Assembly (NCBI RefSeq): GCF_000025925.1
Contig: NC_014033.1
Coordinates: 3,480,001 to 3,512,000, forward strand
Reading direction: 5' to 3'
Length of the DNA stretch: 32,000 nt
Source of the DNA: Xylanibacter ruminicola 23
Lineage (GTDB): Bacteria > Bacteroidota > Bacteroidia > Bacteroidales > Bacteroidaceae
Shown here: positions 904 through 18,299 of the stretch, piece by piece
Layout: the number at the start of each line of letters is the position of its first letter
Position numbering within the stretch: position 1 is the stretch's first letter
Position numbers and translations under genes: made by a program
The notes under the pieces: model-generated
Database searches by the model: none
What the model was told of the DNA's origin: nothing
What the model saw: only the letters and a program-made list of their open reading frames with translations

Positions 904-943
904 GGGGAGGGGAAACCGATGTTTCTCCTTCCCTGTTTTTTTT
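904..943. terminator. Rho-independent terminator between convergent genes
   Basis: 13-bp stem, ggggaggggaaac (904-916) pairing with gtttctccttccc (921-933), including two G-U pairs. The loop is cgat, followed by tgtttttttt. An outer aaaaacaggg/ccctgttttt pairing (875-884 / 931-940) could serve the minus-strand gene. The T-run overlaps the LuxR-gene stop codon. Confidence 0.6.
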
Positions 944-1583: not shown

Positions 1584-1603
1584 AACTGTTCCGATTTTGG
1601 GTG

Positions 1604-1611
1604 CAAAGATA
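1604..1611 (-). promoter_or_regulatory. -7 promoter box (TATCTTTG on the minus strand) for the LuxR-type gene
   Basis: The reverse complement of caaagata is TATCTTTG, in the context TATCTTTGCACCC. Confidence 0.5.
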
Positions 1612-1713
1612 CAAAGAATAGATATAACCTCCAAATATCTGGCGATATTTAGATAATATATCTATAAACGTGGCGTTAATTGATGTTTTTTGCTGGATTC
1701 GAAGCCTGTTTGC

Positions 1714-2523
1714 CTATTTCGTAGAATAATATTCTATATCTTCTATCACCAGACCTGCCAACATAAAACCAAAGATAGCGGTGATATGAGCAAGCGTACC
1801 ATTGATCTGGGCTTTAGAAGAGCACCACTCGTGGTTCAACAGACTCTTGTCGCCTGGACCATTCTGGGCTTTGGGGCACATGCACTTCTCGGTGCCACAG
1901 GTGGCATTATGCCCCCGGTTCTCCAGTAGCTCGTCGCTATAAACGCACTGGAACTTTCGCTTAGGGAATTGCTTCTGCGACTTGAATTTCTTTCTAAGTG
2001 CGCGGGCCAGTGGATCGCCCTGTACCTTCCAGAACTCTGTAACTTTGATACGGGTAGGATCCAGCTTTAAGGCAGCTCCCATTGATGAGAACAGTTTGGC
2101 ATTAGTACGACAAGCCAGGAGAATAAGCGTAGCCTTATCTTTCAGCGAATCGATGGCATCGATGATGTAGTCGTAGGTGTCGAGTTCGAACTCATCTGCA
2201 TTCTCTGCCGTGAAAACCTTTTGTAGGGCATTAATCTCTACTGAAGGGTTGATTGTTAGCAAGCGCTCTTTCAGTGCATCTACCTTTACCTGACCGACGG
2301 TCTTTGTGGTAGCCATCAGCTGGCGGTTGATGTTGGTGATACAAACGCGGTCGCTATCCACAATCGTCAAATGCCTGATACCACTACGTACCAGACTCTC
2401 TGCGCACCATGAACCAACACCTCCCACGCCAAAGATAATCACCCTTTTCTGGGCGATGCGCTCCATAGATTCATTGCCTAAAAGCAGTTCGGAGCGACGG
2501 AATATTGCATCATCTGTTGCCAT
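1714..2523 (-). CDS. tcdA: tRNA threonylcarbamoyladenosine dehydratase (ThiF/HesA/MoeB-family E1-like, TcdA/CsdL)
   Basis: RVIIFGVGGVGSWCAESLVRSGIRHLTIVDSDRVCITNINRQL is the Rossmann GxGxxG plus NRQ motif of the TcdA subfamily. I moved the start to MATDD (ATG 2521-2523), 18 nt downstream of a -7 box. The stop codon is TAG. Confidence 0.8.
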   Translation of the reverse strand: MATDDAIFRRSELLLGNESMERIAQKRVIIFGVGGVGSWCAESLVRSGIRHLTIVDSDRVCITNINRQLMATTKTVGQVKVDALKERLLTINPSVEINALQKVFTAENADEFELDTYDYIIDAIDSLKDKATLILLACRTNAKLFSSMGAALKLDPTRIKVTEFWKVQGDPLARALRKKFKSQKQFPKRKFQCVYSDELLENRGHNATCGTEKCMCPKAQNGPGDKSLLNHEWCSSKAQINGTLAHITAIFGFMLAGLVIEDIEYYSTK

Positions 2524-2549: not shown

Positions 2550-2659
2550 ACATATTTCCTGCAAATAAATAACAAAATAGGTCGAAAAATACCAATATAC
2601 CATCAATGTGGTATATGGAATGCCATAGGGTAGGGATTGTGGGGATGGAGAAAACGCCG

Positions 2660-2667
2660 TACCTTTG
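2660..2667 (+). promoter_or_regulatory. -7 promoter box (TACCTTTG, context TACCTTTGCACCC) for the 2831-14517 operon
   Basis: This is the only TAnnTTTG match between tcdA and the ATG at 2831. It implies a ~160 nt AT-rich 5' leader. Confidence 0.45.
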
Positions 2668-2830
2668 CACCCAGAAACATTAATTAATTATTTAAAGGGT
2701 TATAAAGGTATGAAAAGAACAATGCGAATGCGTATGCAAGATGTTTGTTGTTGTCGCCAGATGATGATGACAATGATGATGAAGGAGGGTATATATATAA
2801 TAGGTATAAACAAAATTAAAAAGAAGCAAT

Positions 2831-3709
2831 ATGAAAAAGATAGCATTAACAATAGCAGTATTATTCAGTATCAGCATCAGCAATATTTGGGCTGAAGGTA
2901 ACGGTGTGAACGACGTTAACGAAGTTAAAGGCACCAACAATACAACCGTACGCACCATTAAGGCACCACGCTTTGCGCGTCCATTGGTCGAAAAGTGGAT
3001 TAAAGAATACGCAAAAACACAACCAGGCGTAGAGTTCCAGATTGCAAAGGGACAAGGTAATTCCGACCTGAATGTAGTACTTGATGATAAAAACTTTAGC
3101 CAGATTGTTTATTTCGGAGAGACAGCCGTGCTGCCTATCACCGCACGTAGCTCTGAGGCAGCCCGACTGCTCGAAGGTAAACACTTGAACAACAAGAAAC
3201 TAAAGCAGCTTTATTTCCTGAATGAGGATTTTGACGAGGAAGTAAAGAAGAACAAGGCTTTCGAAACCATCACTGTTTATAGCGGCAGCAATGCCACATC
3301 GGTAGCTTCGTCGTTCGCTCACAATTTTGGCGAGGAGAGCAGCAATTTCCGTGGCAAGCGTATATCAGGCGACGACCTGTTTTTGAACACCGCTTTGGCA
3401 AAGGATCCTCTGGGCGTGTCGTTCAACGCACTTCCTAATATCTTTGATCTGAAGAGCCGCCACCTGAAAGAAGATCTCTCGCTGGTAGGTCTTGACGTGA
3501 AGAAGGACTTGGCCAACAGTTTCAGCGATAACGGCACACTCGACGAACTGCTTACAGCACTCGAGAATAGTAAGGAGTCGGAGGTTGCTATCGAGAAAGT
3601 CGGCATCAGTGTGAACAATGCCGACGACGAGGTGAACAAGTTCTTGGAATGGGTGCTGGCACAGGGCACCAAGTACAACCACGAATATGGATTGTTGAAT
3701 CTTAAATAA
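2831..3709 (+). CDS. Secreted PstS-fold (type II periplasmic-binding-protein-like) protein of unknown ligand
   Basis: Signal peptide MKKIALTIAVLFSISISNIWA. FARPLVEKWIKEYAKTQPGVEFQIAKGQGNS aligns by eye to E. coli PstS [31 protein letters not shown]. The C-terminal NKFLEWVLAQGTKYNHEYGLLNL aligns to [23 protein letters not shown]. The RADGSGT phosphate-binding motif is replaced by YSGSNATS. Confidence 0.5.
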   Translation: MKKIALTIAVLFSISISNIWAEGNGVNDVNEVKGTNNTTVRTIKAPRFARPLVEKWIKEYAKTQPGVEFQIAKGQGNSDLNVVLDDKNFSQIVYFGETAVLPITARSSEAARLLEGKHLNNKKLKQLYFLNEDFDEEVKKNKAFETITVYSGSNATSVASSFAHNFGEESSNFRGKRISGDDLFLNTALAKDPLGVSFNALPNIFDLKSRHLKEDLSLVGLDVKKDLANSFSDNGTLDELLTALENSKESEVAIEKVGISVNNADDEVNKFLEWVLAQGTKYNHEYGLLNLK

Positions 3710-3726
3710 ATAGTAGTATTAGTCTT

Positions 3727-6700
3727 ATGGGAAAAAGATTGTTAGTTGCAACGCTTGTTGCAATAGGGCCCTTAGTGGCCTTTGCGCAGAACCTGATTAC
3801 CGGACACATCACAGACGTTCGCACCGGCGAGCCGCTGATTGGTGCTTCGGTGATAGTGAAAACTGATAAGGGACGAGGTGTGGTGACCGATGTGGATGGT
3901 AACTTTAAGCTTGAGACAAAGGTAGAAGCCCCACTGACCCTGAAAGTAGAATACGTAGGCTATCGTGCCCTCGATGTAGATGTTTACGATTTCGATGAGC
4001 CAGTAGAGATAGCCCTGATTGATAACTCGAACCGTCTGGACGAGGTGGTAGTAGTAGGTTATGGTGTACAGAAGCGTAAGCAGCTTACTGGTGCTGTAAC
4101 TACCGTAAAGAATGATGAACTGCTGAATACCTCGACCTCGTTCGATAACATCCTGGGTGGTGCCGTTGCTGGTCTTGATGCCACAGCATCATCTGGTCAG
4201 CCAGGTGCATCGGTAAATATCCGCATCCGTGGTGGTAACTCTATCAATGCCGGTAACGAGCCCCTTTATGTGATTGATGGTGTACTGCTGTACAACAGTA
4301 GTTCGGCCACTAATGCCGGCAATAGCGTGGCTGGTACAAACTTTAATCCTTTGGCCTCAATCAACCCATCTGACATCGAGTCGATCGAGGTGCTGAAGGA
4401 TGTGTCAGCCTCGGCTATCTATGGTTCGCGTGGTGCCAATGGTGTAATAATCGTAACCACCAAGAGTGGTAAACATGGTAAGGTTAAGGTGGATTACGGT
4501 TATTCTATTGGCGTATCGTCGGTCCGTAAGCGTTTGGATGTGCTTAACGCTGAGCAGTGGGGCGAGTTGTATCTGGAGTTGGCAACCGATGCCCAGAAGA
4601 AAGCTTCGGGTGTTACACCTGAGTTGGTTAAGACTTGGGGCGAGGGCACCGATTGGCAGGATGCTTTGTTCCGTACTGCTACCACCCAGCAGCATCAGGT
4701 ATCGGTAAGTGGTGGTTCGGATAATGAGCGCTTCCATATTTCGGGCAACTATACCAATCAGGATGGTGTGATTCGCGGCTCAGGATTTACCCGCTTGGGT
4801 GCACGTTTGAACTATGAACGTGACATTCTGAAGAACGTAACCGTTGGCCTGAAGACGAGCTTCTCAAAGAGCACTCAGACCGGTTCTCAGTCGTTCCGCG
4901 GACAGTCGAACGGTGTGAGCGGCCTGCTGGAGTTGGCCTTGCGTACATCGCCTGCAGTACCTATTTATAATACTGATGGTACCTACAACTATGCTAATCC
5001 TTTTGAGGCAGGCGACTTTGTGCGCAATGGCCTGACTCCAAATGCTATTGCCGACCTGAGCGAGGTGGATGCACAGACACGTGTTGATAATACGCTGGTG
5101 AGCGCTTTTGCACAGTGGGAAATCATCAAAGGGCTGAAATTGCGTACACAGGGTTCGGTAAACATCCTGAATACCCGTCAGAGTGTGTTCGGTCCTGCCA
5201 CCTCACAGATTGGTTTCAACTCTGATGGCTATGGTGCCGTGGGTTCAAAGCGCTGGGAGAGCGACCAGGTTGAGGTCACCCTGACATGGAACAAGAAAAT
5301 TGGTAATATCCACGAGTTCGAGGTGCTGGGTGGTTATACCTATCAGCAGGAGAAGAGTGAGCGACTGCTGGGCAGTACAGCTGATTATGCCAACGACAAT
5401 CTGGGTTATCAGAGTCTGCAGTCGGGTTCACAGCTGATTGCTACCGAGACCGATTTTGTAACATCGGTTCTTTATTCAGGTATCGGTCGTATCAACTACT
5501 CGCTGCTGGATCGCTACCATCTTACAGCCACCTTGCGTGCCGATGGTTCAAGCCGTTTTGCCAAAAACAAGAAATGGGGCTGGTTCCCATCACTTGGATT
5601 TGCTTGGAATGTGAACGAAGAGAAGTTCCTGAAGAACATCAAGTGGATTGAAGACTTGAAACTGCGTGCCAGCATTGGTACTGTGGGTAACCAGGAGATT
5701 GGCGACTATACCTTCCTCTCAACTTATGCAGCTACCCATTATTTCCTTGGCGGTATTAAGAATACAGCCTATTACCGTTCGGCTTTGGGCAACGACGACC
5801 TGAAGTGGGAAACTACCACCTCGTACGATTTGGGTTTCGACTTTAATATCCTGAAGGGTAAACTGGGTTTTGTTTTCGATGTGTATCACAAGAAAACTTC
5901 CGACCTGCTGCTGAATATTCCTGTTGAGCAGACTACAGGTTTCAGCAGCCAGCTTACAAACGTAGGCAACGTCACCAATGATGGTGTTGAGTTTGCTGTT
6001 AATGCCACCCTTTGGCAGGCCAAGGACCTTACATGGCAGGTGAGCGCCAATATTGCCCACAACCACAACGAGGTAACAAGCATCGGTACCGGACAGAGTG
6101 AGATTATCAACGGCAACCAGACCATTATCCGTCCAGGCGAAGCACTCGGTACTTACTATGGCTGGCAGTTTGATGGCATCGTGCAGACATCCGAGGATTT
6201 GAAGTCGGTTCCTGCACCATCCAACAAACCAGTCGTAGAATATGGCGACGTGAAGTATGTAGATCAGAATGGTGATGGTGTGGTAGATCAGGAGAACGAC
6301 CGTGTAGTACTTGGTTCAGCACAGCCCGATTTTACCTATGGTTTTGCTACTCAGCTGCGTTATAAGAGTTGGAACTTGAGTCTTAACTTCCAGGGTTCAT
6401 ATGGTAATAAGCTTTATAACCAGATGGAACAGGCACTCGAGTCGCCTAATGCCAGCTATAATGCTTCCACCAAGCTGCTGAACCGTTGGACAGCCGAGAA
6501 TCCCAGCACTACCATCCCACGTGCCGTAGCTCAGAATAACTATAGCGCTTATCTTGATAGCCGCTTTATTGAAGATGCCAGTTATCTGCGCCTGAAGAAT
6601 ATTCAGATTGGCTACAATTTCCAGCCCAAAGTGGGTAACAATCAGAAACTGGGTGTTTACCTCTACGCTTCGGCCCAGAACCTGCTTACAATAACCAATT

Positions 6701-6795
6701 ACAGTGGTTATGATCCTGAGTACAGCGGCTACGTAGATCGTGGAACCTATCCTGCATCTCGTACATTTACATTTGGTGTTAAACTGTCGTATTAA
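3727..6795 (+). CDS. SusC/RagA-family TonB-dependent outer-membrane transporter
   Basis: 1022 aa. Signal peptide, then a CarboxypepD_reg-like domain (ITGHITDVRTGEPLIGASVIV...DGNFKL), then the plug (DEVVVVGYGVQKRKQLTGAV...IESIEVLKDASA-like, YGSRGANGVIIVTTK) and a C-terminal barrel ending FTFGVKLSY. There is no N-terminal STN anti-sigma signalling domain. Confidence 0.9.
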   Translation: MGKRLLVATLVAIGPLVAFAQNLITGHITDVRTGEPLIGASVIVKTDKGRGVVTDVDGNFKLETKVEAPLTLKVEYVGYRALDVDVYDFDEPVEIALIDNSNRLDEVVVVGYGVQKRKQLTGAVTTVKNDELLNTSTSFDNILGGAVAGLDATASSGQPGASVNIRIRGGNSINAGNEPLYVIDGVLLYNSSSATNAGNSVAGTNFNPLASINPSDIESIEVLKDVSASAIYGSRGANGVIIVTTKSGKHGKVKVDYGYSIGVSSVRKRLDVLNAEQWGELYLELATDAQKKASGVTPELVKTWGEGTDWQDALFRTATTQQHQVSVSGGSDNERFHISGNYTNQDGVIRGSGFTRLGARLNYERDILKNVTVGLKTSFSKSTQTGSQSFRGQSNGVSGLLELALRTSPAVPIYNTDGTYNYANPFEAGDFVRNGLTPNAIADLSEVDAQTRVDNTLVSAFAQWEIIKGLKLRTQGSVNILNTRQSVFGPATSQIGFNSDGYGAVGSKRWESDQVEVTLTWNKKIGNIHEFEVLGGYTYQQEKSERLLGSTADYANDNLGYQSLQSGSQLIATETDFVTSVLYSGIGRINYSLLDRYHLTATLRADGSSRFAKNKKWGWFPSLGFAWNVNEEKFLKNIKWIEDLKLRASIGTVGNQEIGDYTFLSTYAATHYFLGGIKNTAYYRSALGNDDLKWETTTSYDLGFDFNILKGKLGFVFDVYHKKTSDLLLNIPVEQTTGFSSQLTNVGNVTNDGVEFAVNATLWQAKDLTWQVSANIAHNHNEVTSIGTGQSEIINGNQTIIRPGEALGTYYGWQFDGIVQTSEDLKSVPAPSNKPVVEYGDVKYVDQNGDGVVDQENDRVVLGSAQPDFTYGFATQLRYKSWNLSLNFQGSYGNKLYNQMEQALESPNASYNASTKLLNRWTAENPSTTIPRAVAQNNYSAYLDSRFIEDASYLRLKNIQIGYNFQPKVGNNQKLGVYLYASAQNLLTITNYSGYDPEYSGYVDRGTYPASRTFTFGVKLSY

Positions 6796-6815
6796 TCTTT
6801 AAAGGTATAAGAAAA

Positions 6816-8447
6816 ATGAAAAAGAATCAGATATATCATACAGCGCAATCTCTGTTGGCAGGCGTGGTGTTCGGCTTGACACTTGCATCGTGCGAGTCGT
6901 TGGATCAGGGTAACCTGAGCGAGCTGGCCGAAAGCAATCTTCCTCAGAGCGATGCAGATGCCAAGGCACTTGTTAATGCCGTATATTCGTCGGATATTGA
7001 ACTGGCCACTACTTACATGTATCTTATCGACCTCACTACCGAGACCACCGTGAGCGGTGAGAATCCTAATGGTGGCGGTGGCATGTTAGGACTGCTCTCA
7101 TGGGATGGAACCAACTCCTATGTGGTGAGCCTGTGGCGTGCTGTATATGCCTCGCTGGCACGTGCTAACGATACCATCGAGAAGTTGCAGACTAATCCTG
7201 CAGGCGTGTCACCCGAGATTGCATCGCAGGTGATAGGCGAAGCCAAGTTTCTGCGTGCTTACTATCTGAACTATGCCGTGCAGCTGTGGGGGCCAGTGCC
7301 TGTCATCACCAGCAGCAAAGGCGGTACAAATGCAGTAAGAAACTCGGAGACAGAGGTTTATCAGCAGATAGTGGCCGACCTTGAGGATGCTGCAGCCCGA
7401 CTGCCTGAGCGCAGTAAGCAGAGTCAGAGTGATATCGGTCGTGCCTCGCGTGGTGCAGCCTTGGCAGCCTTGGCAAAGGTTTACCTGACCTGGGCTCAGG
7501 TGGATGACGACCTGACCGATGCGCAGCGCAAGGAGTATTTCGGCAAGTCGGCTCAGTATGCACAGCAGGTGATCGATTCTAATGAATATAGTCTTGAAGA
7601 GGATTTCTATGACAACTGGAACAACCAGAACCGAAATGGTAAGGAGAGCATATTTGCCATCCAGTTCTATCTGGGATCAAGCACACGCGATGGCGATGCT
7701 TCGGGCAATAACCACCTGTGCCACTGCTCGTTCTCAACCAGCTTCAGCGTGTCGCTGCCACATATCGCACCGGGTCCGGACAACACCGTCGAGAATTCAT
7801 ATCTGCCGGGTGATCAGCGCAAGGATGTATCATTTGCCGACTCACTTTGGCGTCCTTCTACACAGAACTATTTCCACTTCTATTTTGATGCCGACGGTGA
7901 TGGCATCCGCGAGTCGGGCTTCTCACGCTACAACAAGTACATCGACCATGACAGGGTTGAGACAAGTGCTGCCGACCGTGCTATGAACCGTCAGGTGATC
8001 CGTCTGGCTGAGGTGTATCTGGTACTGGCCGAGGCTATCAACGAGCGTGACGGACAGCCTAATCAGCAGGCCTATGATGCCTTCAACAAGGTGCGTCGCC
8101 GTGCATTCCGCGAGGATATCTTCAGCGCAGCAGCACAGTCACACGACCTGAAGTCAGGTCTTGACTACGAAGGCTTCAAGAGTGCCATCATACAGGAACG
8201 CTCATGGGAGTTCGTCCTGGAGCAGAAACATCTGCTCGACCTGAAGCGCTGGAAGATTCTGGTGAAGACCATTAAGAATAGTGCTTTGGCCAAGAACTTC
8301 CCAGAGTATAACAAGCAGACGATTGATTTCAAGCATTATCGTTTCCCCATCCCACAAGCACAGCGAGTAGTTAACCCCAATCTCTGGCAGAACTATGGCT
8401 ACGATGGTTCCGACATCACCACCAACCCCTATGTAGGCAGAGAATAA
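6816..8447 (+). CDS. SusD/RagB-family outer-membrane lipoprotein
   Basis: Lipobox LTLASC. It lies 20 nt downstream of susC. It has typical SusD-like TPR-like segments (EAKFLRAYYLNYAVQLWGPVPV, RLAEVYLVLAEA, ERSWEFVLEQKHLLDLKRW). Confidence 0.85.
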   Translation: MKKNQIYHTAQSLLAGVVFGLTLASCESLDQGNLSELAESNLPQSDADAKALVNAVYSSDIELATTYMYLIDLTTETTVSGENPNGGGGMLGLLSWDGTNSYVVSLWRAVYASLARANDTIEKLQTNPAGVSPEIASQVIGEAKFLRAYYLNYAVQLWGPVPVITSSKGGTNAVRNSETEVYQQIVADLEDAAARLPERSKQSQSDIGRASRGAALAALAKVYLTWAQVDDDLTDAQRKEYFGKSAQYAQQVIDSNEYSLEEDFYDNWNNQNRNGKESIFAIQFYLGSSTRDGDASGNNHLCHCSFSTSFSVSLPHIAPGPDNTVENSYLPGDQRKDVSFADSLWRPSTQNYFHFYFDADGDGIRESGFSRYNKYIDHDRVETSAADRAMNRQVIRLAEVYLVLAEAINERDGQPNQQAYDAFNKVRRRAFREDIFSAAAQSHDLKSGLDYEGFKSAIIQERSWEFVLEQKHLLDLKRWKILVKTIKNSALAKNFPEYNKQTIDFKHYRFPIPQAQRVVNPNLWQNYGYDGSDITTNPYVGRE

Positions 8448-8468
8448 ACAAAAAAAAGAGAGAGCAAT

Positions 8469-9737
8469 ATGAAAAGATTAATTTTGTCAGCCGTAATTGC
8501 AAGTGCTACCCTCACGGGGGCACTTGCTCAACAAAACGATCAGCGCCTGAATAAGGCCATCACCGATAAAGGCTATTTTCAGAAAGCCTGGAAGAGTGCA
8601 CCATCATTTCGCGACCTGCTTAAGCGTCGCAAGGCAGCAGTCAATCAGTTCAGAGCTATCCCTACTGCAGCATTGCACCCCATCACTATCAGAGCTTTTG
8701 CCACAGCAGAGCAGCGTGCCGGCACACGTCATGTGATTATACGTGAGCATCAGTATCTGAATGACAGTGGTTACAACAATGGGGGCTTCGACCTGGGAAT
8801 TGGTACTCCCGACCATGTGATTGCAGCTATTGCCGGTGATATCATCGACAGCTACGTCACACAGGCTGCTATCAAGGGCGTTGCCATCGACTCGCTTGCC
8901 ATCAATATCAAGCAGACTGGGCATTCGCTGCAGAACTGGGGACTGGATTATACCATCTTTATTGATTCGCCTGCTTCTGACCAGCAACTTGAGGAGTTAC
9001 GTGTCCTGGCCGAGAAAAACTCACCACTTTATCAGTTCTCTATCCGTGCGCATAAGGTAAACACAACAGTTGAACTGCATAAGAGTGCCGAGGAATTGGA
9101 GATTCCACCTACCTATCAACCAGGTTTGCGTGAGTTCATTGAGTGGGAAACGCGTAAAGGCGAGGCTAACAAGCAGCTTCGTGAAAGCGGTCAGCGTCCC
9201 GATAAGGCAAAGTTTGGTGGCTATGCATACGACTATCCTTACTCTCGTAAGAATGAGTTCACGCCTGCTCAGAGCGAGAGCTATCTGAATCCTGACGGTC
9301 CCACTGCTTTCATCAATCCCTCATCAGGTGTAACCGTACTTCAAGTGCGCCATCACAGAGTGTTGCAGGATCATCCACAGATTTTTGGTGGTAACGACCT
9401 TGGTCCTACAGCTGTTGAGAGTCATATCGGATTGCTTGGTTCGTGCTTTACCCATGTGGCAGAGGGAACCGCAGCACGCAACAGGATTCCACTTGATACC
9501 CTTAACGTAGCACTCACTGCCCAGTTCGACCCACGCAGCGGTCGCAAAGGCTACGAGCAAACCCCACTTTATCCTACCGACATACAGATGCGTGTGGTGA
9601 TAAGCAGTCCACGCAGTGAGGCTGAGATCCGTCAGCTGGTTGCCGATACCGAGCGTGGATGCCCCATCTACAATCTGGTAACCAACGCGCAGGAAATCAA
9701 AGGAGGTATAAAAAGAGTAATAGCAAAGAATAAGTAA
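8469..9737 (+). CDS. Secreted fused double OsmC/Ohr-like-domain protein (paralog A)
   Basis: Type I signal peptide (ALAQQ). The C-terminal half carries both OsmC-type cysteines: LLGSCFTHV (Cys326, nt 9444-9446) and ERGCPIYNL (Cys398, nt 9660-9662). The N-terminal half aligns to it (GGFDLGIGTPDHVIAAIAGDIIDSY / IFIDSPASDQQLEELRVLAEKNSPLYQF), but both Cys positions are replaced. Confidence 0.65.
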   Translation: MKRLILSAVIASATLTGALAQQNDQRLNKAITDKGYFQKAWKSAPSFRDLLKRRKAAVNQFRAIPTAALHPITIRAFATAEQRAGTRHVIIREHQYLNDSGYNNGGFDLGIGTPDHVIAAIAGDIIDSYVTQAAIKGVAIDSLAINIKQTGHSLQNWGLDYTIFIDSPASDQQLEELRVLAEKNSPLYQFSIRAHKVNTTVELHKSAEELEIPPTYQPGLREFIEWETRKGEANKQLRESGQRPDKAKFGGYAYDYPYSRKNEFTPAQSESYLNPDGPTAFINPSSGVTVLQVRHHRVLQDHPQIFGGNDLGPTAVESHIGLLGSCFTHVAEGTAARNRIPLDTLNVALTAQFDPRSGRKGYEQTPLYPTDIQMRVVISSPRSEAEIRQLVADTERGCPIYNLVTNAQEIKGGIKRVIAKNK

Positions 9738-9758
9738 TCATTAAAAATAGAAAGAGTT

Positions 9759-10994
9759 ATGAAAAAGAATCAGATTGTTATCATTACAGCAGCCCTTGCT
9801 TTGCAGGTTAGTAGTGCACTCGCACAGGGGCCTCTCAATATCTTTAAGTCGGCTCAGCAGAAAGCCAAGTTGGAACAGAATGCCCCTTCGTTGCGTAACC
9901 ACCTGAAGGAGCGTAAGGTGGCCCTTGAGGCTTGGAATGCTATACCCGCCAGCGATTTGCAGCCAGTAACACTTACAGCCAATGTTACCGCCAAGAACCG
10001 CTCGGGCGTGCGTGAACTCCGAATCAGAGAGTTTCATTATATTGGCGACTGTGGTTATGCACATGGTGGACAGGATTCGGGTGTGGACACCCCAACTACA
10101 GCTCAGGCCGTGTTTGCTTCCGACCTTGCCGACAGCTATCTGAATCAGGCTGCGCTGCTGGGTATCGATATCGACTCGCTGACTATCGAAATCCACGGTC
10201 AGCCCGACAAGGTGAAGACCAATCGTGTGTGGTATCCACGCAACTTCCTCTACACCATCTATATTGATTCACCTGCCTCGGATGCTGAGTTGGAAAAGTT
10301 GGCAGTATTGGCAGAGCAGAACTCGGCTGTAGCCACTCTGGTGAAGGCTGCCGTAGTACCTCAACTGATTATCGATCAGAAGTCGTCACCACGCGAGAAG
10401 AAGGTTGAAGGCGCCACCTTGGCTGGACTTCGCGAGTATATCTGGGGTAAGCGTCAGGCGCTGCAGGCCAGTAAGGCTAAGGCTGAGGCAGCAAAAGCCA
10501 AGAATCCAAAGGCTGACGCAGATGCCTTGCGTAAAGCACTTGCTCCAAAGCAGGGCCCATGGGTAAAGGTTTTCCCCAATGGTGTGCGTCAGCTAACCGT
10601 AAATGATAAATATCTCATTCTGCACGATAATCCTGCTTATCTGGGTGGTACCAATCTCGGTTTTACCTCAATCGAGGGTGTGCTTGGCATCCTGGGCACC
10701 TGTATCACTCACATCTCATTGGGACAGGCAGCAGAACGCGCACTCGACGTGGATTCTATCTCGCTGACCGTCGAGGCTGAATGGGACCCACGAGCAGGTC
10801 GCAAGGGCTTTGAGAAGGTGTCGATTGCTCCACAGAATGTGCGTTATACTTTGCATGTGAAGACACCCGAAAGTGCTCAGGCCGTGAAAGAGTGGATCGA
10901 GGCTGTTGAGAAGATTTGCCCCATGTACAACCTCTTCAAGGACACACAGACATTCGAGCATCGCATCGTACGTGGTAGTTTTAAAAGACAATAA
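9759..10994 (+). CDS. Secreted fused double OsmC/Ohr-like-domain protein (paralog B)
   Basis: Collinear with paralog A at roughly 35-40% identity by eye. The C-terminal half keeps ILGTCITHI (Cys315, nt 10701-10703) and EKICPMYNL (Cys387, nt 10917-10919). The N-terminal half (FASDLADSY, AEQNSAVATL) lacks them. The linker is Lys/Ala-rich (ASKAKAEAAKAKNPKADADALRKA). Confidence 0.65.
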   Translation: MKKNQIVIITAALALQVSSALAQGPLNIFKSAQQKAKLEQNAPSLRNHLKERKVALEAWNAIPASDLQPVTLTANVTAKNRSGVRELRIREFHYIGDCGYAHGGQDSGVDTPTTAQAVFASDLADSYLNQAALLGIDIDSLTIEIHGQPDKVKTNRVWYPRNFLYTIYIDSPASDAELEKLAVLAEQNSAVATLVKAAVVPQLIIDQKSSPREKKVEGATLAGLREYIWGKRQALQASKAKAEAAKAKNPKADADALRKALAPKQGPWVKVFPNGVRQLTVNDKYLILHDNPAYLGGTNLGFTSIEGVLGILGTCITHISLGQAAERALDVDSISLTVEAEWDPRAGRKGFEKVSIAPQNVRYTLHVKTPESAQAVKEWIEAVEKICPMYNLFKDTQTFEHRIVRGSFKRQ

Positions 10995-11590
10995 TGATGA
11001 AGTATGAGCCTGCATATTTACTCGCTTTGGCTACTTGGCCTGTAACCGTTTGTGCTACCAATGCACAGGCAGACTCACTACGCATAGCTCGTCCGGCCGC
11101 TTTTCCTGCTGTAAGCCGACATCAGACGCTCGACTCGCTGAAAGCAGAAGTGAAGCTGCAACTGGAGCAGCGGTACGGACAGCACTATGGGTGCTCGGCA
11201 CTCTCACTAACCTCTATCGCTGCTACACTGGGCAGTCCACTAAGCGAGCAGCAGCTTCGAAGCATGTCGGAGGCGTTCTCGGGTGGTATCGGGCATAAGT
11301 TTGGCGAAGGCACTTGTGGCGCACTTACCGGTGCCATTGCAGCCTTAGGTTTTTATGCCAGTGGCGATAAGGAGAAACATTTGCGGTTGGCAGCTGAAGT
11401 ATATGATGAGTTTAAGAAGCAACAGGGATCCATTACGTGTGGTGATATCTACGCCCGTTATCATTTTAGTCACTGCGACGGATGTAATCTCTGTGCGATA
11501 CAGAAGGTGATTGAAGTTCTTTACCGTGAGGGTGATATCCACACAAGTACCATCGCCCCATGGCAGCAGTTAACAGAAGAAAAGAAATAA
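10994..11590 (+). CDS. C_GCAxxG_C_C-family putative redox protein with an N-terminal signal-like extension
   Basis: Family motifs are present in order: YGCSALSL, GTCGALTGA (CGAxxG), SITCGDI, HCDGCNLC. About 45 extra N-terminal residues begin with the hydrophobic stretch YLLALATWPVTVCATNAQA. The start ATG overlaps the upstream TAA (TAATG). Confidence 0.7.
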   Translation: MMKYEPAYLLALATWPVTVCATNAQADSLRIARPAAFPAVSRHQTLDSLKAEVKLQLEQRYGQHYGCSALSLTSIAATLGSPLSEQQLRSMSEAFSGGIGHKFGEGTCGALTGAIAALGFYASGDKEKHLRLAAEVYDEFKKQQGSITCGDIYARYHFSHCDGCNLCAIQKVIEVLYREGDIHTSTIAPWQQLTEEKK

Positions 11591-11597
11591 AAAGGAG

Positions 11598-12566
11598 ATG
11601 ATGATTATGGAAAAGAGAGTTTTTACAAGAATTAGCGCGATAGTTTTTTGGCTGTTTTCAGGTTTCGCACTCACTGCCTGCGGAGGTAGTGACGATCCAG
11701 TAGTACCTATCAATATACCAACCGAAGACGACGAATGCTGCAATGCCGAAGAGACATTTCTGGCATATACTTTCCTGCACAACGGTTATCTGAAAGAGAT
11801 TGAATCGCTACGCGACACAATCGATGAGAAATATGCCCTGAGCGTTTACTCGCGAGGTGGCAAACTGCATGCAGGCTATAATGATGTGTTTTTTGCGCTG
11901 ACAAAAATCTCTAATCAAGGTTTTGTTCGTGATTTTTCTGTAACAGAGATAAGTCCCGTGATGACCATGACCGAGAAAGGTATGAAGCACTCAACACCAA
12001 CGGCTACAGAGAGCAGCCTTTACGATGAAACATTCCCTGCCGTACAGCACGCGTGGATATCTTTCGTAATGAGTAGTAGCAGTATGGGCTATTGGGAACT
12101 GGGATACAAGGCAACTACCCAGAATAAAACAGTTGCCCATACCGGTAGTGTTATCGAGGTTTCGGCCAATGCTACAGGCCAGGAGTGGATTAAGTCGTTC
12201 AAATATCAGGATGTAAATTATTACCTCTCGCTGGTAAATCCTAATGATTTCCAGACTGGTATAAACACTATTCAGGCATACGTGTCGCAGCAGAATGCTG
12301 AGAAAGCCAAACCCTGGCCATTGGCTGATCAGGAGTTTACTATCGAAATTATACCCACTATGCCCGATATGGGCAATCATTCTTCGCCCGATAATGTGGC
12401 TCTTACCAAACAGCCATCAGGCATATACGAAGGTAAGCTAAACCTTACCATGACAGGCCTGTGGGATATTCATCTGGTTGTAAAGGACAAAGAAGGTAAC
12501 ATTGTAGCAGGAGGAGAGAATAATGACAGCGGGTATAGCAATATTTATTGGAGCGTTATATTATAG
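11598..12566 (+). CDS. Lipoprotein with two tandem YtkA/FixH-like Ig-fold repeats, each carrying a Met/His motif
   Basis: Lipobox ALTAC (Cys28) followed by DDECC. Repeat 1 contains SPVMTMTEKGMKHSTP ... WISFVMSSSSMGYWELGYK. Repeat 2 contains IPTMPDMGNHSSP ... GIYEGKLNLTMTGLWDIHLVVKD. The G-x-Y...M-x-G-x-W pattern is characteristic of YtkA-like domains. Confidence 0.55.
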   Translation: MMIMEKRVFTRISAIVFWLFSGFALTACGGSDDPVVPINIPTEDDECCNAEETFLAYTFLHNGYLKEIESLRDTIDEKYALSVYSRGGKLHAGYNDVFFALTKISNQGFVRDFSVTEISPVMTMTEKGMKHSTPTATESSLYDETFPAVQHAWISFVMSSSSMGYWELGYKATTQNKTVAHTGSVIEVSANATGQEWIKSFKYQDVNYYLSLVNPNDFQTGINTIQAYVSQQNAEKAKPWPLADQEFTIEIIPTMPDMGNHSSPDNVALTKQPSGIYEGKLNLTMTGLWDIHLVVKDKEGNIVAGGENNDSGYSNIYWSVIL

Positions 12567-14517
12567 TAATGTATTGACCGCTTTGCCAACCGACAGTATC
12601 GAGAAAGAAGCATCGATTAACGAGGTGACTATCACCTCGACTGTCGGTTCCAAGCGCAAGGTGGCTGGCAAGGGGCGTACAGCATCGATAGAGGAGCATC
12701 TGTTGCAGTTGAACAATGTTGCCATGGTGAAACGAGGCGCATATGCCTGGGAACCAGTGGTAAACAATATGTCTACCGAGCGATTGAGTACAACTATCGA
12801 TGGTATGAAGATATTCTATGCTTGTACCGATAAAATGGATCCTGTAACGTCGTATGTAGAAAGTGGTAACCTGCAGCGCGTAAGACTGGATTCGGGCCTT
12901 GATGGCAATCCACAGGCAACAGGAAATATCGGCGGAAGTATTGATCTGAAACTCCGTAAGTCGGGGTTTGATGCTGCTCCTCAGGAGTTTAACCTTACTA
13001 CTGGGTATGAAGCCAACGGCCATCTGCAGGTGTATGGTGCCGATGCTGCGTTCTCGTCGCAGACGTTCTATGCCAACTTCGGCGCGTTTTATCGTGATGC
13101 AGATAATTACAGGGCTGGTGGACATCAGGATGTTCCTTTTTCCAAGTTCCATAAAGTCAATTCGTTTCTGAACCTGGGGTTCCGTCCAGCCCCAAACCAC
13201 ATCGTAGAGGGTACGGTCATTTTCGACCGTGCCACCGATGTTGGCTATCCGGCCCTGAATATGGATGTTAGCGATGCTACAGGACTTATCACGTCGCTTT
13301 CTTATCGCAGGGAGCAGCTTGCGGGGCTTTTCTACCGATGGGAAACCAAGGTGTACTATAATCATATCACCCATAATATGGATGATAGCACACGCCCCGA
13401 CGTGATTATTCACATGGATATGCCTGGTAAAAGCAGTACGGCCGGACTCTATAGTCTGCTCGAGGGCTCAAGGGGTAAACATCAGTATCAGCTTAATTTT
13501 GATTGCTATTACAATACCCTTTTTGCTGATATGACCATGTATGTTGAGGGGGCCAAACCCATGTACATGCTTACGTGGCCTGATGTGGGTACTTTCAACA
13601 GCGGTTTGTCGTTGTCTGATAATATCCGTTTGTCTGATACGCATAGTATCCATCTGTCGGCAAAAGGCTCTTGGCAGCAGCAACGTATTAACAGCGATGA
13701 AGGCTACCACGCCTTGGAAATATTTTTCCCAGGTGTGGAACGTAGCAAGCGTACTTTTATGGGACGTGTGTCTGTAAGCTATGCCTGGCAGAAAAATGGT
13801 TGGCGATTGGCTGCTGGAACAGGATACGGTAATCGTGCACCATCGGTTACCGAGTCGTTTGGATACTTCCTGAATAATGCCTTCGACCGTTATGATTACA
13901 TTGGTAATCCCCACCTTAAGAACGAAAGTGCGGTTGAGTTGAATACATCGGCTTCGTGGCAGAATGATGTGATAGATACTCGCCTAGAGGTGAATGCATT
14001 TTTTTTCCATAACTACATTATCGGTACACCCGATAACCGATTGTCGGCCATGACTATCGGAGCTCCGGGTGTGAAGGTTTACCAGAACCTAAAACATGCG
14101 AAGATTGTGAATACTGCGTTTACATTCAGTGTCACCCCTCTTTCCTGGTTGCGTTGGGACAATAAGGTGAGTTACAGTTATGGCAAGGAGAGCACTGGGG
14201 CTCATCTGCCTTTGATTGCTCCCTTTACCTATCTTACGGCATTGAAACTGTTCCATCAGAACTGGGAAGGAGAATTGGGTGGCGAACTGGTTGGCAAACA
14301 GAGCAACTACAGCAATAAATATGGCGAGAGTCTTACACCAGGCTATGCTGTATGGCATATCAGTGCCGGTTATCAGTTTAACATCCATACGGTTGTAGCT
14401 AATATCCATGTGGGTGTTGATAACCTGTTTGATCGTTACTATTCTACCTATTCAGATTGGAATCATATTCCCCAAAAGGGTCGTAACATCTATGCCAATC
14501 TATCGGTGAAGTTGTAG
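12523..14517 (+). CDS. TonB-dependent receptor (non-SusC type; plug resembles the OprC/NosA copper-receptor class)
   Basis: 664 aa. INEVTITST, then plug segments VAMVKRGAYAWEPVVNNMSTERLSTTIDGMKIFYACTDKMDPVTSYV (compare the GACxxRMDPPxSY motif of OprC-type receptors). The C-terminal barrel ends NIYANLSVKL. It overlaps the upstream lipoprotein gene by 44 nt. The stop codon is TAG. Confidence 0.8.
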   Translation: MTAGIAIFIGALYYSNVLTALPTDSIEKEASINEVTITSTVGSKRKVAGKGRTASIEEHLLQLNNVAMVKRGAYAWEPVVNNMSTERLSTTIDGMKIFYACTDKMDPVTSYVESGNLQRVRLDSGLDGNPQATGNIGGSIDLKLRKSGFDAAPQEFNLTTGYEANGHLQVYGADAAFSSQTFYANFGAFYRDADNYRAGGHQDVPFSKFHKVNSFLNLGFRPAPNHIVEGTVIFDRATDVGYPALNMDVSDATGLITSLSYRREQLAGLFYRWETKVYYNHITHNMDDSTRPDVIIHMDMPGKSSTAGLYSLLEGSRGKHQYQLNFDCYYNTLFADMTMYVEGAKPMYMLTWPDVGTFNSGLSLSDNIRLSDTHSIHLSAKGSWQQQRINSDEGYHALEIFFPGVERSKRTFMGRVSVSYAWQKNGWRLAAGTGYGNRAPSVTESFGYFLNNAFDRYDYIGNPHLKNESAVELNTSASWQNDVIDTRLEVNAFFFHNYIIGTPDNRLSAMTIGAPGVKVYQNLKHAKIVNTAFTFSVTPLSWLRWDNKVSYSYGKESTGAHLPLIAPFTYLTALKLFHQNWEGELGGELVGKQSNYSNKYGESLTPGYAVWHISAGYQFNIHTVVANIHVGVDNLFDRYYSTYSDWNHIPQKGRNIYANLSVKL

Positions 14518-14539
14518 CTTATTCAGCAGCTACAACTTC
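14508..14539. terminator. Bidirectional hairpin spanning both convergent stop codons
   Basis: Perfect 12-bp stem, gaagttgtagct (14508-14519) with agctacaacttc (14528-14539), and an 8-nt loop. The arms are the last codons of the TonB receptor (+) and of ridA (-). No strong T-run follows on either side. Confidence 0.45.
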
Positions 14540-14896
14540 AATTTCAACCAAAGCACCCTTGGGGAGTGTTTTTACAGCCACAGCCGAACGGGCTGGATAT
14601 GGCTCAGCAAAGAACTCGGCATAAACGGCATTCATGTCGGCAAAGTCGTTCATGTCGGCCATAAATACGGTTGTCTTCACCACATGGGCCATGGTTAAGC
14701 CTGCTTCTTCAAGAATGGCTTTGATGTTGGTGAGCGATTGACGGGTCTGCTCCTTGATGCCACCCTCTACAAAACTTCCTGTTGCAGGATTGATGGGTAT
14801 CTGACCTGAGGTGTAGAGCAGGTTGCCTACACGGATGGCCTGACTGTAAGGACCGATGGCAGCTGGTGCCTGATTGGTGCTGATAACTTGTTTCAT
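14519..14896 (-). CDS. ridA: RidA/YjgF-family reactive enamine/imine deaminase
   Basis: 125 aa. [12 protein letters not shown]...GQIP...[20 protein letters not shown] is the canonical RidA sequence. Confidence 0.9.
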
Positions 14897-14909
14897 ACCT
14901 TTATCATGT

Positions 14910-15440
14910 TTATTTGTTGATACCTTTCAGCAGTTTCTCTACCTTCTGATACTGTACGGTTGAGAGCAGGATATTGCCTTCGGGTGAGACGACTACCATG
15001 GATGGAATCCACTGTACACCGTAGGATTTAGAGATGTCGGTTTCCTTAAACTTCTTCAGTTCGCTCACCTGGGGATAGCTGATGCCGTACTGATTGATGG
15101 CCTTCTGCCAAGCTTCAACGTTGGTATCCATCGATACGCCTACAAACTCCACCTTGTCGGAGTGGAAATCGTTGTACAGGCGAACTACCTCAGGCGCATC
15201 CTTGCGACAGTCGGGGCACCACGAGGCCCAGAAATCAAGTACTACAGTCTTACCTTTCAGCGAACTGAGGCTGAAGGGTTTGCCGTCGGGGGTATTCATG
15301 GTGAAGTCGGGAGCCACAGTGCCTGGCTGTATCAGACTGGTGGCATACTTGGCATCCAGATCTTCGTCGGTGGTTTGCGCTTTTGTGTTAATGGCAAACC
15401 CCGCTAAGAGCAGGGCTGCCAATAGTGTTTTGAGCTTCAT
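14910..15440 (-). CDS. Secreted TlpA/ResA-like thiol-disulfide oxidoreductase (thioredoxin fold)
   Basis: Signal peptide [21 protein letters not shown]. Active site FWASWCPDC (CxxC). AhpC/TSA-Redoxin-like layout. Confidence 0.85.
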
Positions 15441-15462
15441 AAGAGATACTTGTTTGTTTTAT

Positions 15463-16953
15463 CTATTTGTTCAGTTTCCAGGTAACACCATCCTTGGTGT
15501 CCTTCACCTCGAAACCGGCTGCTGCGAGTTCATCGCGAATCTTATCGCTGGTAGCCCAGTCCTTATCAGCCTTGGCCTTAGCACGCAGTTCCAGTACCAT
15601 ATCCATTACCTTACCAAAGGCAGCCTCGCGCTCATCGTTGGTGCCGCTCTTCTCGGCCTTCAAGCCCAGAATATCCTCGGCAAAGAGGTGCATGGTTTCC
15701 TTCAGCTCCTGCAGGCAGTCGGCGCAGATGGTGGCTTTGTGGTCGGTGAGCTTGTTCACCACGGTGCAAGCTTCGAACAGATAACTGATCACCTGTGGGG
15801 TTGCCAGGTCGTCGTTCATGGCGTCGTAGCACTTCTGGCGCAGAGCCTTAACTACCTTCTCAGTCTCGGCATCGCACTTGTCGGCTACCTGAACACGCTC
15901 CAAGTCGGCAATGGCGTTCATCATCTTCTCCAATCCCTTCTCGGCAGCCTCCAAGGCCTCGTTCGAGAAATCTACCGTGCCACGGTAGTGAGCGCTGAGC
16001 ACGAAGAAACGGATGGTCATCGGTGAGTAGGCCTTCTTCAGCAATGGGTGATTGCCGGTGAAGAACTGCTCGAGGGTGATGAAGTTGTTATACGACTTAC
16101 CCATCTTCTGTCCGTTGATGGTCAGCATGTTGTTATGCATCCAGTATTTTACAGCGGGGTGACCCATCGAGGCCTGTGCCTGTGCAATCTCGCACTCGTG
16201 GTGTGGGAATACCAGGTCCATACCACCACCATGGATGTCGAACTCTTCGCCTAAGTACTTGCGGCCCATGGCTGTGCACTCGCAGTGCCAACCGGGGAAT
16301 CCGTCGCTCCAAGGACTAGGCCAGCGCATGATGTGCTCGGGCTGAGCCTTCTTCCACAGGGCAAAGTCGGCCTGGTTGCGCTTCTCGCCTACACCGTCGA
16401 GCTCACGACTGGCATCCTTCACGTTCTCGAGCGAACGACCTGAAAGAATACCATACTGGAACTTCTTGTTGTAAGCTTCGATATCAAAGTAGATAGAACC
16501 GTTGCTCTCGTAAGCAAAGCCATTGTCGAGAATCTGCTGAACCAGTTGCTGCTGCTCGATGATATGACCAGTGGCATGGGGCTCGATAGAGGGGCGCAGC
16601 ACATTCAGTGCATCCATAGCCGCATGATAGCGGTTGGTGTAGTACTGGGCAATCTCCATAGGCTCCAACTGCTCCAAGCGGGCTTTCTTGGCAATCTTAT
16701 CCTCACCCTCGTCGGCATCGTGCTCCAAGTGACCTACGTCGGTAATATTACGTACATAACGTACTTTATACCCCAGGTGCTTCAGATAACGGAACACCAG
16801 GTCGAAAGTAATCGCAGGACGGGCGTGTCCCAGATGGGGATCGCCATACACGGTAGGACCACAAACATACATACCCACGTTGGGGGCGTGAAGGGGCTCG
16901 AAACGCTCCTTCTGTCGTGTCAAAGTATTGTAAATTACTAACTTAGATTCCAT
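15463..16953 (-). CDS. cysS: Cysteine--tRNA ligase
   Basis: [19 protein letters not shown] (HIGH motif) and [12 protein letters not shown] (KMSKS-type). I moved the start to MESKLVIYN (ATG 16951-16953), 21 nt downstream of a -7 box. The ORF-track extension to 17091 runs through the promoter and the repeat. Confidence 0.9.
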
Positions 16954-16974
16954 AATGCTCTTAAATTTTGGGTG

Positions 16975-16982
16975 CAAAGGTA
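16975..16982 (-). promoter_or_regulatory. -7 promoter box (TACCTTTG, context TACCTTTGCACCC) for cysS-tlpA-ridA
   Basis: The reverse complement of caaaggta. The downstream gaps of 22 nt and 13 nt suggest the three genes are co-transcribed. Confidence 0.5.
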
Positions 16983-16992
16983 ATAAAAAGTT

Positions 16993-17089: not shown

Positions 17090-17106
17090 ACCTATCATTA
17101 ATATCT

Positions 17107-18291: not shown

Positions 18292-18299
18292 AAAAATGT

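Follow-up and report, generated by a model that had tools for sequence, protein, structure and literature searches.

The stretch analyzed here (the window) comprises 32,000 nucleotides (nt) of Xylanibacter (Prevotella) ruminicola 23 (NC_014033.1, 3,480,001-3,512,000; all positions given for it are counted within this stretch), and it contains a cluster of eight genes, g1 to g8 (Table 1), which encodes a SusC/SusD pair together with proteins of thiol- and metal-related families. We think that this cluster is rather probably the scavenging arm, at the outer membrane, of a Bacteroidales regulon for cysteine/sulfur assimilation, and that it would be induced by cysteine starvation. Three features, namely a palindromic operator, an upstream open reading frame (ORF) rich in Cys and Met codons, and the removal of Cys and Met from the proteins g1 to g5, together indicate, as read from the sequences, a sulfur-starvation (cysteine) regulon and not a detoxification system. 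The original prediction for this DNA is supported in part, namely in that the SusC/SusD locus serves the import of a non-glycan substrate and includes thiol and metal proteins of the envelope. Of the substrate classes that it offered, the evidence favors sulfur, whereas organic hydroperoxides and metal chelates have gained no specific support as SusCD cargo.

The depletion of sulfur-containing residues is marked. The protein g1, of 292 residues, is devoid of Cys and of internal Met, the SusC protein g2 possesses no Cys and a single internal Met in 1022 residues, and the tandem-OsmC protein g4 two Cys and one internal Met in 422 residues; the neighboring genes encode 2-6% Met. The conservation of this composition was followed in loci retrieved by a tandem-OsmC profile search of one genome per species, which gave 67 loci (L numbers). 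Bacteroidales and related Bacteroidota account for about 58 of these, and the window proteins were then mapped onto the loci. SusC orthologs down to 33% identity have a median of 0.10% Cys plus Met, g1 orthologs have 0.32% and all neighboring ORFs 3.5%, and the SusC gene least similar to g2 in this analysis of related loci has 3.56%. Among the 145 nearest non-orthologous SusC representatives, drawn from a library of 1.8 billion proteins, the median is 1.08% and the 5th percentile 0.38%. A marked and conserved depletion relative to paralogs, as expected of sulfur-starvation proteins, is found for g1 to g5, and the Cys residues left in them are the lipobox Cys, one conserved Cys of SusD and the OsmC Cys pair. 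Also the linked O-acetylhomoserine sulfhydrylase contains neither Cys nor Met in 430 residues. A few non-orthologous SusC representatives (P0362, P0423 and P0386, for example) are likewise poor in Cys plus Met (0.17-0.3%), and other sulfur-sparing SusCD systems may therefore exist.

The operator ATACCA-N6-TGGTAT has one perfect match within the window. With at most one mismatch, 65 copies were found in 1.27 Mb of related loci, where about 3 are expected, and nearly all of them are intergenic. They precede g1, SusC, extra OsmC, YtkA, cysK, ThiS-ThiF-JAB, DsrE2, C45 peptidase and response-regulator genes, and also genes for the Cys/Met-free O-acetylhomoserine sulfhydrylase and for a pyridoxal phosphate (PLP) enzyme of Cys/Met metabolism; upstream of ThiF orthologs, the operator lies at a distance of 74-75 nt in L011, L055 and L057. 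An unbiased metagenome scan with the operator-plus-promoter pattern returned 120 loci; most often the gene that came first downstream was cysK (48 cases), followed by g1 or SusC (16), O-acetylhomoserine sulfhydrylase (15) and ThiF/JAB (9). As the operator mostly precedes cysK, O-acetylhomoserine sulfhydrylase and ThiS/ThiF/JAB genes, the locus is assigned to their regulon.

Further genes were seen at some of these operator copies. In five metagenomic loci, an ATPase-like gene, a gene of unknown type or a possible fucosidase gene lies opposite cysK, across the palindrome; these were judged without a family search and are treated as bystanders. In the metagenome units L187, L096, L107 and L164, between one and three large ORFs of about 670-1600 amino acids come after cysK under the operator, and their products in L187 and L096 resemble by eye PAS/histidine-kinase sensors, some with an amino-acid-binding-protein-like periplasmic domain, and these ORFs may encode sensor partners of the NarL-type regulator described below. 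In L022, a ThiS-family ORF of 70 residues (2489-2701) that ends with ...GGGAR, thus Gly-Gly with extra residues, stands between the operator and a ThiF gene, which is followed by a JAB protease gene, an arrangement typical of protein-thiocarboxylate sulfur-carrier pathways.

The absence of a regulator, as claimed initially, proved wrong, since a gene for a NarL/FixJ-type response regulator lies 1.2 kb upstream. Over its full length (residues 20-222), its product resembles the NarL-family response regulators of NCBIfam, and the gene probably shares a transcript with the ThiF-family gene that starts in the divergent promoter region. Orthologs adjoin the locus in nine other loci (L005-7, L011, L053, L055, L058, L039 and L043), and the one in L039 is itself preceded by the operator and a Cys-rich leader. 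We regard this regulator as the candidate binder of the palindromic operator, and the second conserved element, between operator and promoter, may be a degenerate further site for it. The ThiF-family product has its best NCBIfam match in TcdA, whose score of 163 bits lies below the cut-off. The single TAnnTTTG box that had been noted is present and is kept in orthologous loci. A scan for sigma-70 promoters and terminators was uninformative for Bacteroidetes, and an Rfam scan of the whole window at gathering thresholds gave no match.

Between this promoter and the first gene, as in leader-peptide attenuators, lies the codon run of the upstream ORF. The window ORF contains CCC and MMM.MMM runs, and equivalent ORFs in many lineages have two to five consecutive Cys codons, including short forms such as MRMCCPGMSC. 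Such ORFs precede not only g1 but also SusC (L019, L044), an extra OsmC gene (L034), O-acetylhomoserine sulfhydrylase (L043), the regulator (L039) and separate copper modules (L047, L038). In an independent metagenome sample, the ORF occurred in 11 of 13 g1 promoters, but in none of the 48 cysK, 15 sulfhydrylase and 7 ThiF promoters. In Prevotella, it always reads 49-70 nt beyond the g1 start codon in another frame. A canonical terminator with an alternative antiterminator follows the ORF in L037, L034, L043 and L039, the 5' arm of the terminator being able to pair instead with a segment at or just past the ORF end; in the first three of these the geometry is that of a four-part attenuator. 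Outside Prevotella, the leader geometry is, by these predicted pairings, that of trp-type attenuation, in which stalling at Cys codons would give read-through. The window has no terminator/antiterminator, and the ORF overlaps the g1 start instead. Its UGU run and AUG run are able to pair via G-U and A-U into a hairpin, so that the Met codons may be structural as well as sensory. Inside the same ORF, about 35 nt before the g1 start, a GTATATATAATAGGTATAAAC motif (2790-2815) is conserved at the nucleotide level in Prevotella leaders; it may serve the initiation of translation or act as a second promoter.

Taken together, the following mechanism can be proposed. The NarL-type regulator would act at the operator, and when Cys-tRNA (and Met-tRNA) becomes scarce, ribosomes would stall in the Cys/Met codon run of the upstream ORF, which would free the g1 start region in this lineage and favor the antiterminator in others, so that the operon would be expressed when cysteine is short. 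Because they would be made when sulfur is limiting, g1 to g5 would have lost almost all Cys and Met. SusD and SusC would capture and import a sulfur-bearing substrate, most likely Cys/Met-containing peptides that are possibly disulfide-linked or oxidized; small reduced or oxidized sulfur species are possible as well. The single two-Cys site of the tandem-OsmC proteins would then reduce or carry the substrate sulfur, be it a disulfide, sulfoxide or persulfide, with g1 as periplasmic binder and g6 as auxiliary thiol protein. The g7-g8 pair would form a separate, co-regulated module for copper capture and import.

Peptides are favored as cargo because sulfur-poor peptidases, permeases and YeeE/YedE transporters accompany the core elsewhere. 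In other lineages, the slot behind OsmC holds secreted sulfur-poor peptidases of the families S9 (13 loci), M20 (10 loci), M14 and S10, and also C45; the M14 peptidase contains no Cys and one Met in about 860 residues. The initial statement that the locus lacks peptidases therefore holds for the eight window products, but not for this operon position in general. Also SDF-family permeases, amino-acid permeases and YeeE/YedE sulfur transporters accompany the core in other lineages. In L038 (Prolixibacteraceae), for example, two sulfur-transport genes of the YeeE/YedE type, each of half size (13264-14429), extend an operon of SusCD, OsmC and S9 peptidase genes.

Concerning the individual proteins, the families named originally for g2 to g8 were borne out by Pfam and NCBIfam. 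The protein g2 belongs to the SusC/RagA type, with a full-length match to TIGR04056 (894.7 bits, cut-off 368.25), a match to the SusC signature TIGR04057 (63.3 bits, cut-off 46.2) and plug, barrel and CarboxypepD_reg domains in Pfam. The SusD/RagB lipoprotein g3, which follows SusC after a gap of 20 nt, matches SusD_RagB (PF07980) with 112.5 bits and SusD-like_3 (PF14322) with 88 bits, and possesses a LASC lipobox. About 45 SusD orthologs share the invariant motif GGN-HLxHC-(S/A)F...PH, in the window GNNHLCHCSFS...LPH, and are otherwise almost free of Cys; the only invariant Cys outside the lipobox lies within HLxHC...PH. This motif may be a candidate ligand, metal or reactive-thiol site in the lid protein. 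The sequence matches of SusC and SusD in the PDB did not discriminate between glycan and peptide transporters.

The proposed PstS fold of g1 is weakly supported. Six of 17 orthologs match PBP_like_2 (PF12849; best E 1.9e-4), and a g1 profile search of PDB sequences finds PstS chains (PstS2 4h1x at E 0.002), but the window protein on its own matches no Pfam family and neither PBP_like_2 nor PstS. Its AlphaFold model, made from a 33-sequence alignment of at least 76% identity, is unusable (predicted local distance difference test, pLDDT, 34), and a profile search to widen the alignment returned only Prevotella proteins of 71-75% identity and one of 89%. As the alignment could not be widened, the fold assignment rests on weak hidden Markov model evidence. 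For g6, the assignment to C_GCAxxG_C_C holds, with 64.5 bits for PF09719 (cut-off 27); the TIGR01909 score of 46.8 bits is just below its cut-off of 47.4.

Both g4 and g5 match OsmC (PF02566; 59 and 65 bits), and the predicted doubling is confirmed by the alignment of the two halves of g4 with each other (BLASTP E 9e-6). The AlphaFold model of g4 (pLDDT 80) contains two OsmC/Ohr folds, and its top Foldseek matches are all OsmC/Ohr proteins, which suggests that g4 is a single-chain pseudo-dimer. The two Cys residues typical of OsmC are kept only in the C-terminal half (C326 and C398, invariant in the orthologs), and the N-terminal half carries Asp and Ser at these positions; a CxxH is also invariant in OsmC. 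A selenium function, to which the NCBIfam designation of the OsmC-like and C_GCAxxG proteins as "(seleno)protein" might point, was considered and rejected, as the partners are cysK and metY and neither Sec machinery nor an in-frame TGA was seen.

The OsmC/Ohr fold with both Cys residues kept in one half could also be read as a sign of envelope defense against organic hydroperoxides or thiol-reactive electrophiles, with the OsmC proteins as periplasmic peroxidases and a sulfur-poor make-up that resists oxidation. Proteins poor in Cys and Met are indeed resistant to oxidation, and the opposite strand carries, shortly downstream, the gene for a TlpA/ResA-like thioredoxin. However, this gene is found beside the locus in only 5 of about 60 loci, a defense system has no need of an energized importer with a SusD lid, and no peroxide-sensing regulator is present. 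As also the regulon partners are biosynthetic sulfur genes and the leader is a putative Cys-codon attenuator, we regard such a defense function as quite improbable.

Several points weigh against the sulfur-scavenging function proposed here. Its induction by sulfur limitation is deduced from sequence only, and that the adjacent regulator binds the operator is assumed because the two are located together. SusC proteins are generally low in Cys plus Met (about 1%), so that measured against the SusC family the depletion amounts to about tenfold, and not to about 35-fold, as it does against all proteins. The leader RNA of the window folds no better than shuffled sequence (z 0.73), and no riboswitch-like structure is claimed for it. 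Also, the near-identical X. ruminicola-type loci L011 (4323-4370) and L055 (4176-4223) have no upstream ORF and only 47 nt between the promoter box and the g1 ATG, so that the leader ORF is a dispensable, strain-variable insertion or deletion. SusC and SusD are not specifically RagAB-like, the window locus itself contains no peptidase, and for a PstS-like binder an oxyanion would be a more fitting ligand than peptides. Finally, a response to sulfur starvation has no evident use for a copper importer, although one is co-regulated in three distant lineages; the Met and Cys ligands of OprC-type receptors are the very residues that dominate the leader peptide, which may hence sense copper.

Judged by its conserved residues, the g7-g8 copper module is real. 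The protein g8 has OprC as best PDB match, and its residues C101, M105, H284 and M286 align with C143, M147, H323 and M325 of OprC. In 18 orthologs, which reach down to 47% identity, neither the complete CxxxM-HxM copper site nor an HMDMPG motif varies. The original assignment of g8 as OprC/NosA-like stands insofar as TonB-copper/OprC is the best family, but with 116.7 bits for TIGR01778 (cut-off 472.45) the equivalog level is not reached. The lipoprotein g7 matches YtkA-like (PF13115) with 28.5 bits (cut-off 25.9) and the PDB entry 9ll2, "Copper resistance protein", at E 4e-6, and it carries the conserved Met/His motifs MxMx4MxH (122-131) and MxxMxxH (255-261). Its second YtkA domain is visible only by profile comparison; the predicted duplication is moderately supported by hhalign of the ortholog halves (Prob 68%, E 4.8e-5), whereas BLASTP between the halves finds nothing. 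Nearly all Met residues of g7 and g8 are conserved ones. YtkA/CtaK domains have a part in copper delivery in Bacillus (PMC13344008).

The copper pair is located inside the operon in Prevotella and a few kilobases away in L047 and L038 (Prolixibacteraceae). Such separate modules have their own Cys-codon leader in L047 and L038, and the operator in L047 and L020. In L038, the convergent module (15297-20545) has an MKRTCC... leader of its own and encodes, besides an OprC-like receptor and an HMA-domain protein, a double-YtkA protein and a YtkA-fn3 protein that bears a type IX secretion tag. In L047, a predicted membrane protein of 151 residues with an NCCQGKCF motif, which matches no Pfam family, is encoded between the Cys leader and the YtkA/OprC genes (15408-15863).

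The copper module raises the question of whether the whole cluster serves the acquisition of copper or another soft metal. Copper would then enter bound to a compound through SusCD and in ionic form through g7/g8, the thiol proteins would handle Cu(I), the upstream peptide would sense copper, and non-functional Cys and Met would have been purged to prevent stray binding of copper. The full OprC copper site of g8 and the two Met/His motifs of g7 fit such a role, and so do the resemblance of the invariant SusD motif to a metal site, the CxxH of OsmC, the conservation of Met and Cys, both Cu(I) ligands, in the leader, and the same leader type at the separate modules of L038 and L047. The operator, however, is common mainly to cysK, O-acetylhomoserine sulfhydrylase and ThiS/ThiF/JAB genes, and avoidance of copper does not explain why also a cytoplasmic sulfhydrylase is free of Cys and Met. 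Furthermore, a copper module is missing within 10 kb of most SusCD-OsmC loci, the core goes with peptidases, amino-acid permeases and YeeE/YedE transporters, and no copper efflux or copper regulator genes were seen. We therefore consider a copper-acquisition cluster unlikely. A copper-assisted capture of sulfur, to which we likewise give only a small chance, would combine both functions: imported copper would load HLxHC...PH of SusD and perhaps CxxH/C of OsmC, and the soft metal would bind sulfide, persulfide or thiolates, or copper would be stripped from metal-sulfide or metal-thiolate to free the sulfur. That the copper importer shares its regulation with the scavenging of sulfur in three distant lineages keeps a copper-centered role alive and is also the motive for this speculative combination.

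The gene order is conserved well beyond the window. The core of g1, SusC, SusD and tandem OsmC recurs in about 50 Bacteroidales loci, and adjacent SusC-SusD-tandem OsmC genes are found in about 50 loci of Prevotellaceae, Tannerellaceae, Dysgonomonadaceae, Prolixibacteraceae and others, with the order kept down to about 35% identity. A tandem-OsmC gene comes directly after SusD in about 50 loci, with one to three OsmC paralogs per locus, and g1 is located upstream of SusC in 35. C_GCAxxG_C_C genes are found in 27 loci, with or without g7/g8, YtkA-like genes in 21 and OprC-like genes in 18. The locus is thus better seen as a set of modules, namely g1 to g5, an optional g6 and an independently moving g7-g8 copper module. 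The original view of one eight-gene unit describes the closely packed operon of the window, but the unit is not fixed, as its modules are combined otherwise in other loci.

This modularity might be taken to mean that a degenerate polysaccharide utilization locus, stress genes and a copper receptor have come together by chance and share no function, the more so as g7/g8 can sit elsewhere in the genome and strains differ in what follows g8. This is very improbable, because the genes of the window locus are separated by at most 21 nt or overlap throughout, because the SusC-SusD-OsmC order is kept over such distances, because separate modules carry the same operator and leader type, and because no carbohydrate-active enzyme (CAZyme) is linked to the cluster in any lineage surveyed.

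Table 1. Features of the g1-g8 cluster and its control region in the window.
Feature	Position	Strand	Description
NarL/FixJ-type response regulator	942-1634	-	receiver and GerE/LuxR helix-turn-helix; Pfam GerE 53 bits
ThiF/TcdA-like E1-type adenylyltransferase	1714-2523	-	Pfam ThiF 134 bits; divergent from same control region
Operator	2597-2614		perfect palindrome ATACCA-TCAATG-TGGTAT, 46 nt upstream of promoter box
Second upstream element	2619-2645	+	AATGCCA...GGGATTGTGGG; conserved columns in alignment of eight Prevotella leaders
Bacteroidetes -7 promoter box	2660-2667	+	TAccTTTG, read directly; CGCCGTACCTTTGCA kept across orthologous loci
Upstream ORF/leader peptide	2710-2895	+	MKRTMRMRMQDVCCCRQMMMTMMMKEG...; Cys/Met-codon-rich; runs 64 nt past g1 start in other frame
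g1	2831-3709	+	secreted protein, putative PstS-like periplasmic-binding fold
g2	3727-6795	+	SusC/RagA-type TonB-dependent transporter, 1022 residues
g3	6816-8447	+	SusD-family lipoprotein
g4	8469-9737	+	secreted tandem-OsmC protein, 422 residues
g5	9759-10994	+	g4 paralog, 34% identical, same architecture
g6	10994-11590	+	C_GCAxxG_C_C family Cys-rich putative redox protein, probable signal peptide, optional module
g7	11598-12566	+	lipoprotein, two YtkA/CtaK-like domains, predicted Cu(I) binder
g8	12523-14517	+	OprC/NosA-like TonB-dependent transporter

In the window, the eight co-directional ORFs have spacings of 17, 20, 21, 21, -1, 7 and -44 nt, exactly as described before, and in the strains D31d and Ga6B6 the loci are 99% identical across the cluster. 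The signal peptide or lipobox ascribed to every product is, judged by eye, clear for g1 to g5 and g7 but atypical for g6 and g8. Also the closing hairpin was borne out by folding. It is located where g8 and a RidA gene converge, between their stop codons (14508-14539), has a perfect stem of 12 bp and a folding energy of -19.9 kcal/mol (z = -6.1 against shuffled sequences), and is likely a bidirectional terminator, although it has no long T run.

The cluster does not have the features of a polysaccharide utilization locus. As claimed initially, the eight products comprise no CAZyme, since Pfam and NCBIfam give no glycoside hydrolase, lyase or esterase domain, and such glycoside hydrolase (GH), polysaccharide lyase or carbohydrate esterase domains are also lacking in the conserved partners elsewhere. 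A GH97 gene lies 4 kb off on the other strand, beyond three unrelated genes. The regulators of such loci (hybrid two-component systems, SusR or ECF-sigma/anti-sigma pairs) are not found either, the linked regulator being of the NarL/FixJ type.

Directly downstream and convergent to g8, the minus strand encodes RidA, the TlpA/ResA-like thioredoxin and cysteinyl-tRNA synthetase (14519-17091). In strain D31d (L010), by contrast, the operon runs on beyond g8 in this position, with plus-strand genes for a C45 hydrolase, a Cys/Met PLP enzyme, DsrE2 and an SrpI-like family 2 encapsulin. Further on in the window, an iron-containing alcohol dehydrogenase is encoded on the minus strand in two ORFs (17107-18390; N-terminal part 17551-18390, C-terminal part 17107-17538), and this split is a frameshift, a pseudogene or a sequencing error.

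The sulfur supply of the dominant gut and rumen Bacteroidales is poorly understood, and many of them are thought to depend on reduced sulfur. If the function proposed here is true, this would be the first SusCD-type "utilisome" that is dedicated to a sulfur nutrient, with an operator, a candidate regulator and a cysteine-sensing leader, and ribosome-mediated sensing of cysteine, which has so far been shown in mycobacteria, would extend to the Bacteroidota. An OprC-type copper importer that is switched together with sulfur scavenging may also bear on the copper-sulfur antagonism in ruminant nutrition, and the exported tandem-OsmC and C_GCAxxG_C_C families would obtain a physiological context. 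Should even the copper-assisted capture of sulfur be true, this would be a metal-dependent sulfur-acquisition machine without known counterpart, under a Cys-codon regulatory network described for the first time in Bacteroidota.

A description of this cluster, its operator or its leader was not found in the literature searched, and neither were expression data on an induction under sulfur limitation. Several known systems are related to its parts. RagAB, the oligopeptide importer of Porphyromonas gingivalis, is likewise a SusC/SusD-family pair for a non-glycan nutrient, and peptidases are linked to the present system in several lineages. RagA is among the significant PDB matches of g2 (346 bits), but SusC homologs for dextran and levan match better. 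Unlike RagAB, the pair described here is tied to tandem-OsmC, PstS-like and C_GCAxxG_C_C proteins, is extremely poor in sulfur, and belongs to a cysK/metY regulon behind a Cys-codon leader. The sulfate-starvation-induced proteins of the CysB regulon in proteobacteria and the sulfur-depleted isoforms of cyanobacteria and yeast are similar in composition and in the proposed control: uptake proteins made under sulfur limitation are depleted of Cys and Met and co-regulated with cysK, and thiol-peroxidase-like members occur among them. In comparison, the system here would use a TonB-dependent SusCD pair and not an ABC transporter, has a candidate regulator of the NarL type and not of the LysR type, and possesses in addition a proposed ribosome-mediated Cys sensor and a copper importer.

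With regard to the individual components, g8 aligns with OprC of Pseudomonas aeruginosa and keeps the CxxxM-HxM site and a Met-rich segment. Unlike the OprC and NosA copper transporters, it has as partner a YtkA-type lipoprotein of the surface or the periplasm and stands under sulfur-type control, and the L038 receptor is paired also with a secreted YtkA protein and an HMA-domain protein. The C-terminal half of g4/g5 has the fold and both Cys residues in the catalytic positions in common with the OsmC/Ohr thiol peroxidases. In contrast to these cytoplasmic homodimers, however, the proteins are tandem fusions that have lost one active site (Cys to Asp, Cys to Ser), are exported by a signal peptide, or by a lipobox in other lineages, always come after SusD, and have no reductant partner encoded. 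The protein-thiocarboxylate pathways for methionine and cysteine, HcyS-HcyD-HcyF-MetY of Wolinella and CysO-Mec-MoeZ-CysM of M. tuberculosis, find a possible counterpart in genes for ThiS-like, ThiF-like and JAB proteins and O-acetylhomoserine sulfhydrylase, which carry the same operator in neighboring positions and are putative regulon partners outside the eight-gene cluster. As to the leader, short poly-Cys ORFs precede sulfur-related operons in mycobacteria, where stalled ribosomes relieve attenuation at low cysteine (Canestrari et al., bioRxiv 10.1101/834739). The leaders described here differ in that they belong to another phylum, that their mRNAs are not leaderless, that Met-codon runs can pair with the Cys-codon run, that two architectures occur, with an overlap of the g1 start in Prevotella or a terminator/antiterminator, and that the controlled genes encode outer-membrane importers. 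The parts are hence of known kinds, SusCD importers, sulfur-starvation regulons and leader-peptide attenuators, and it is their combination that is new.

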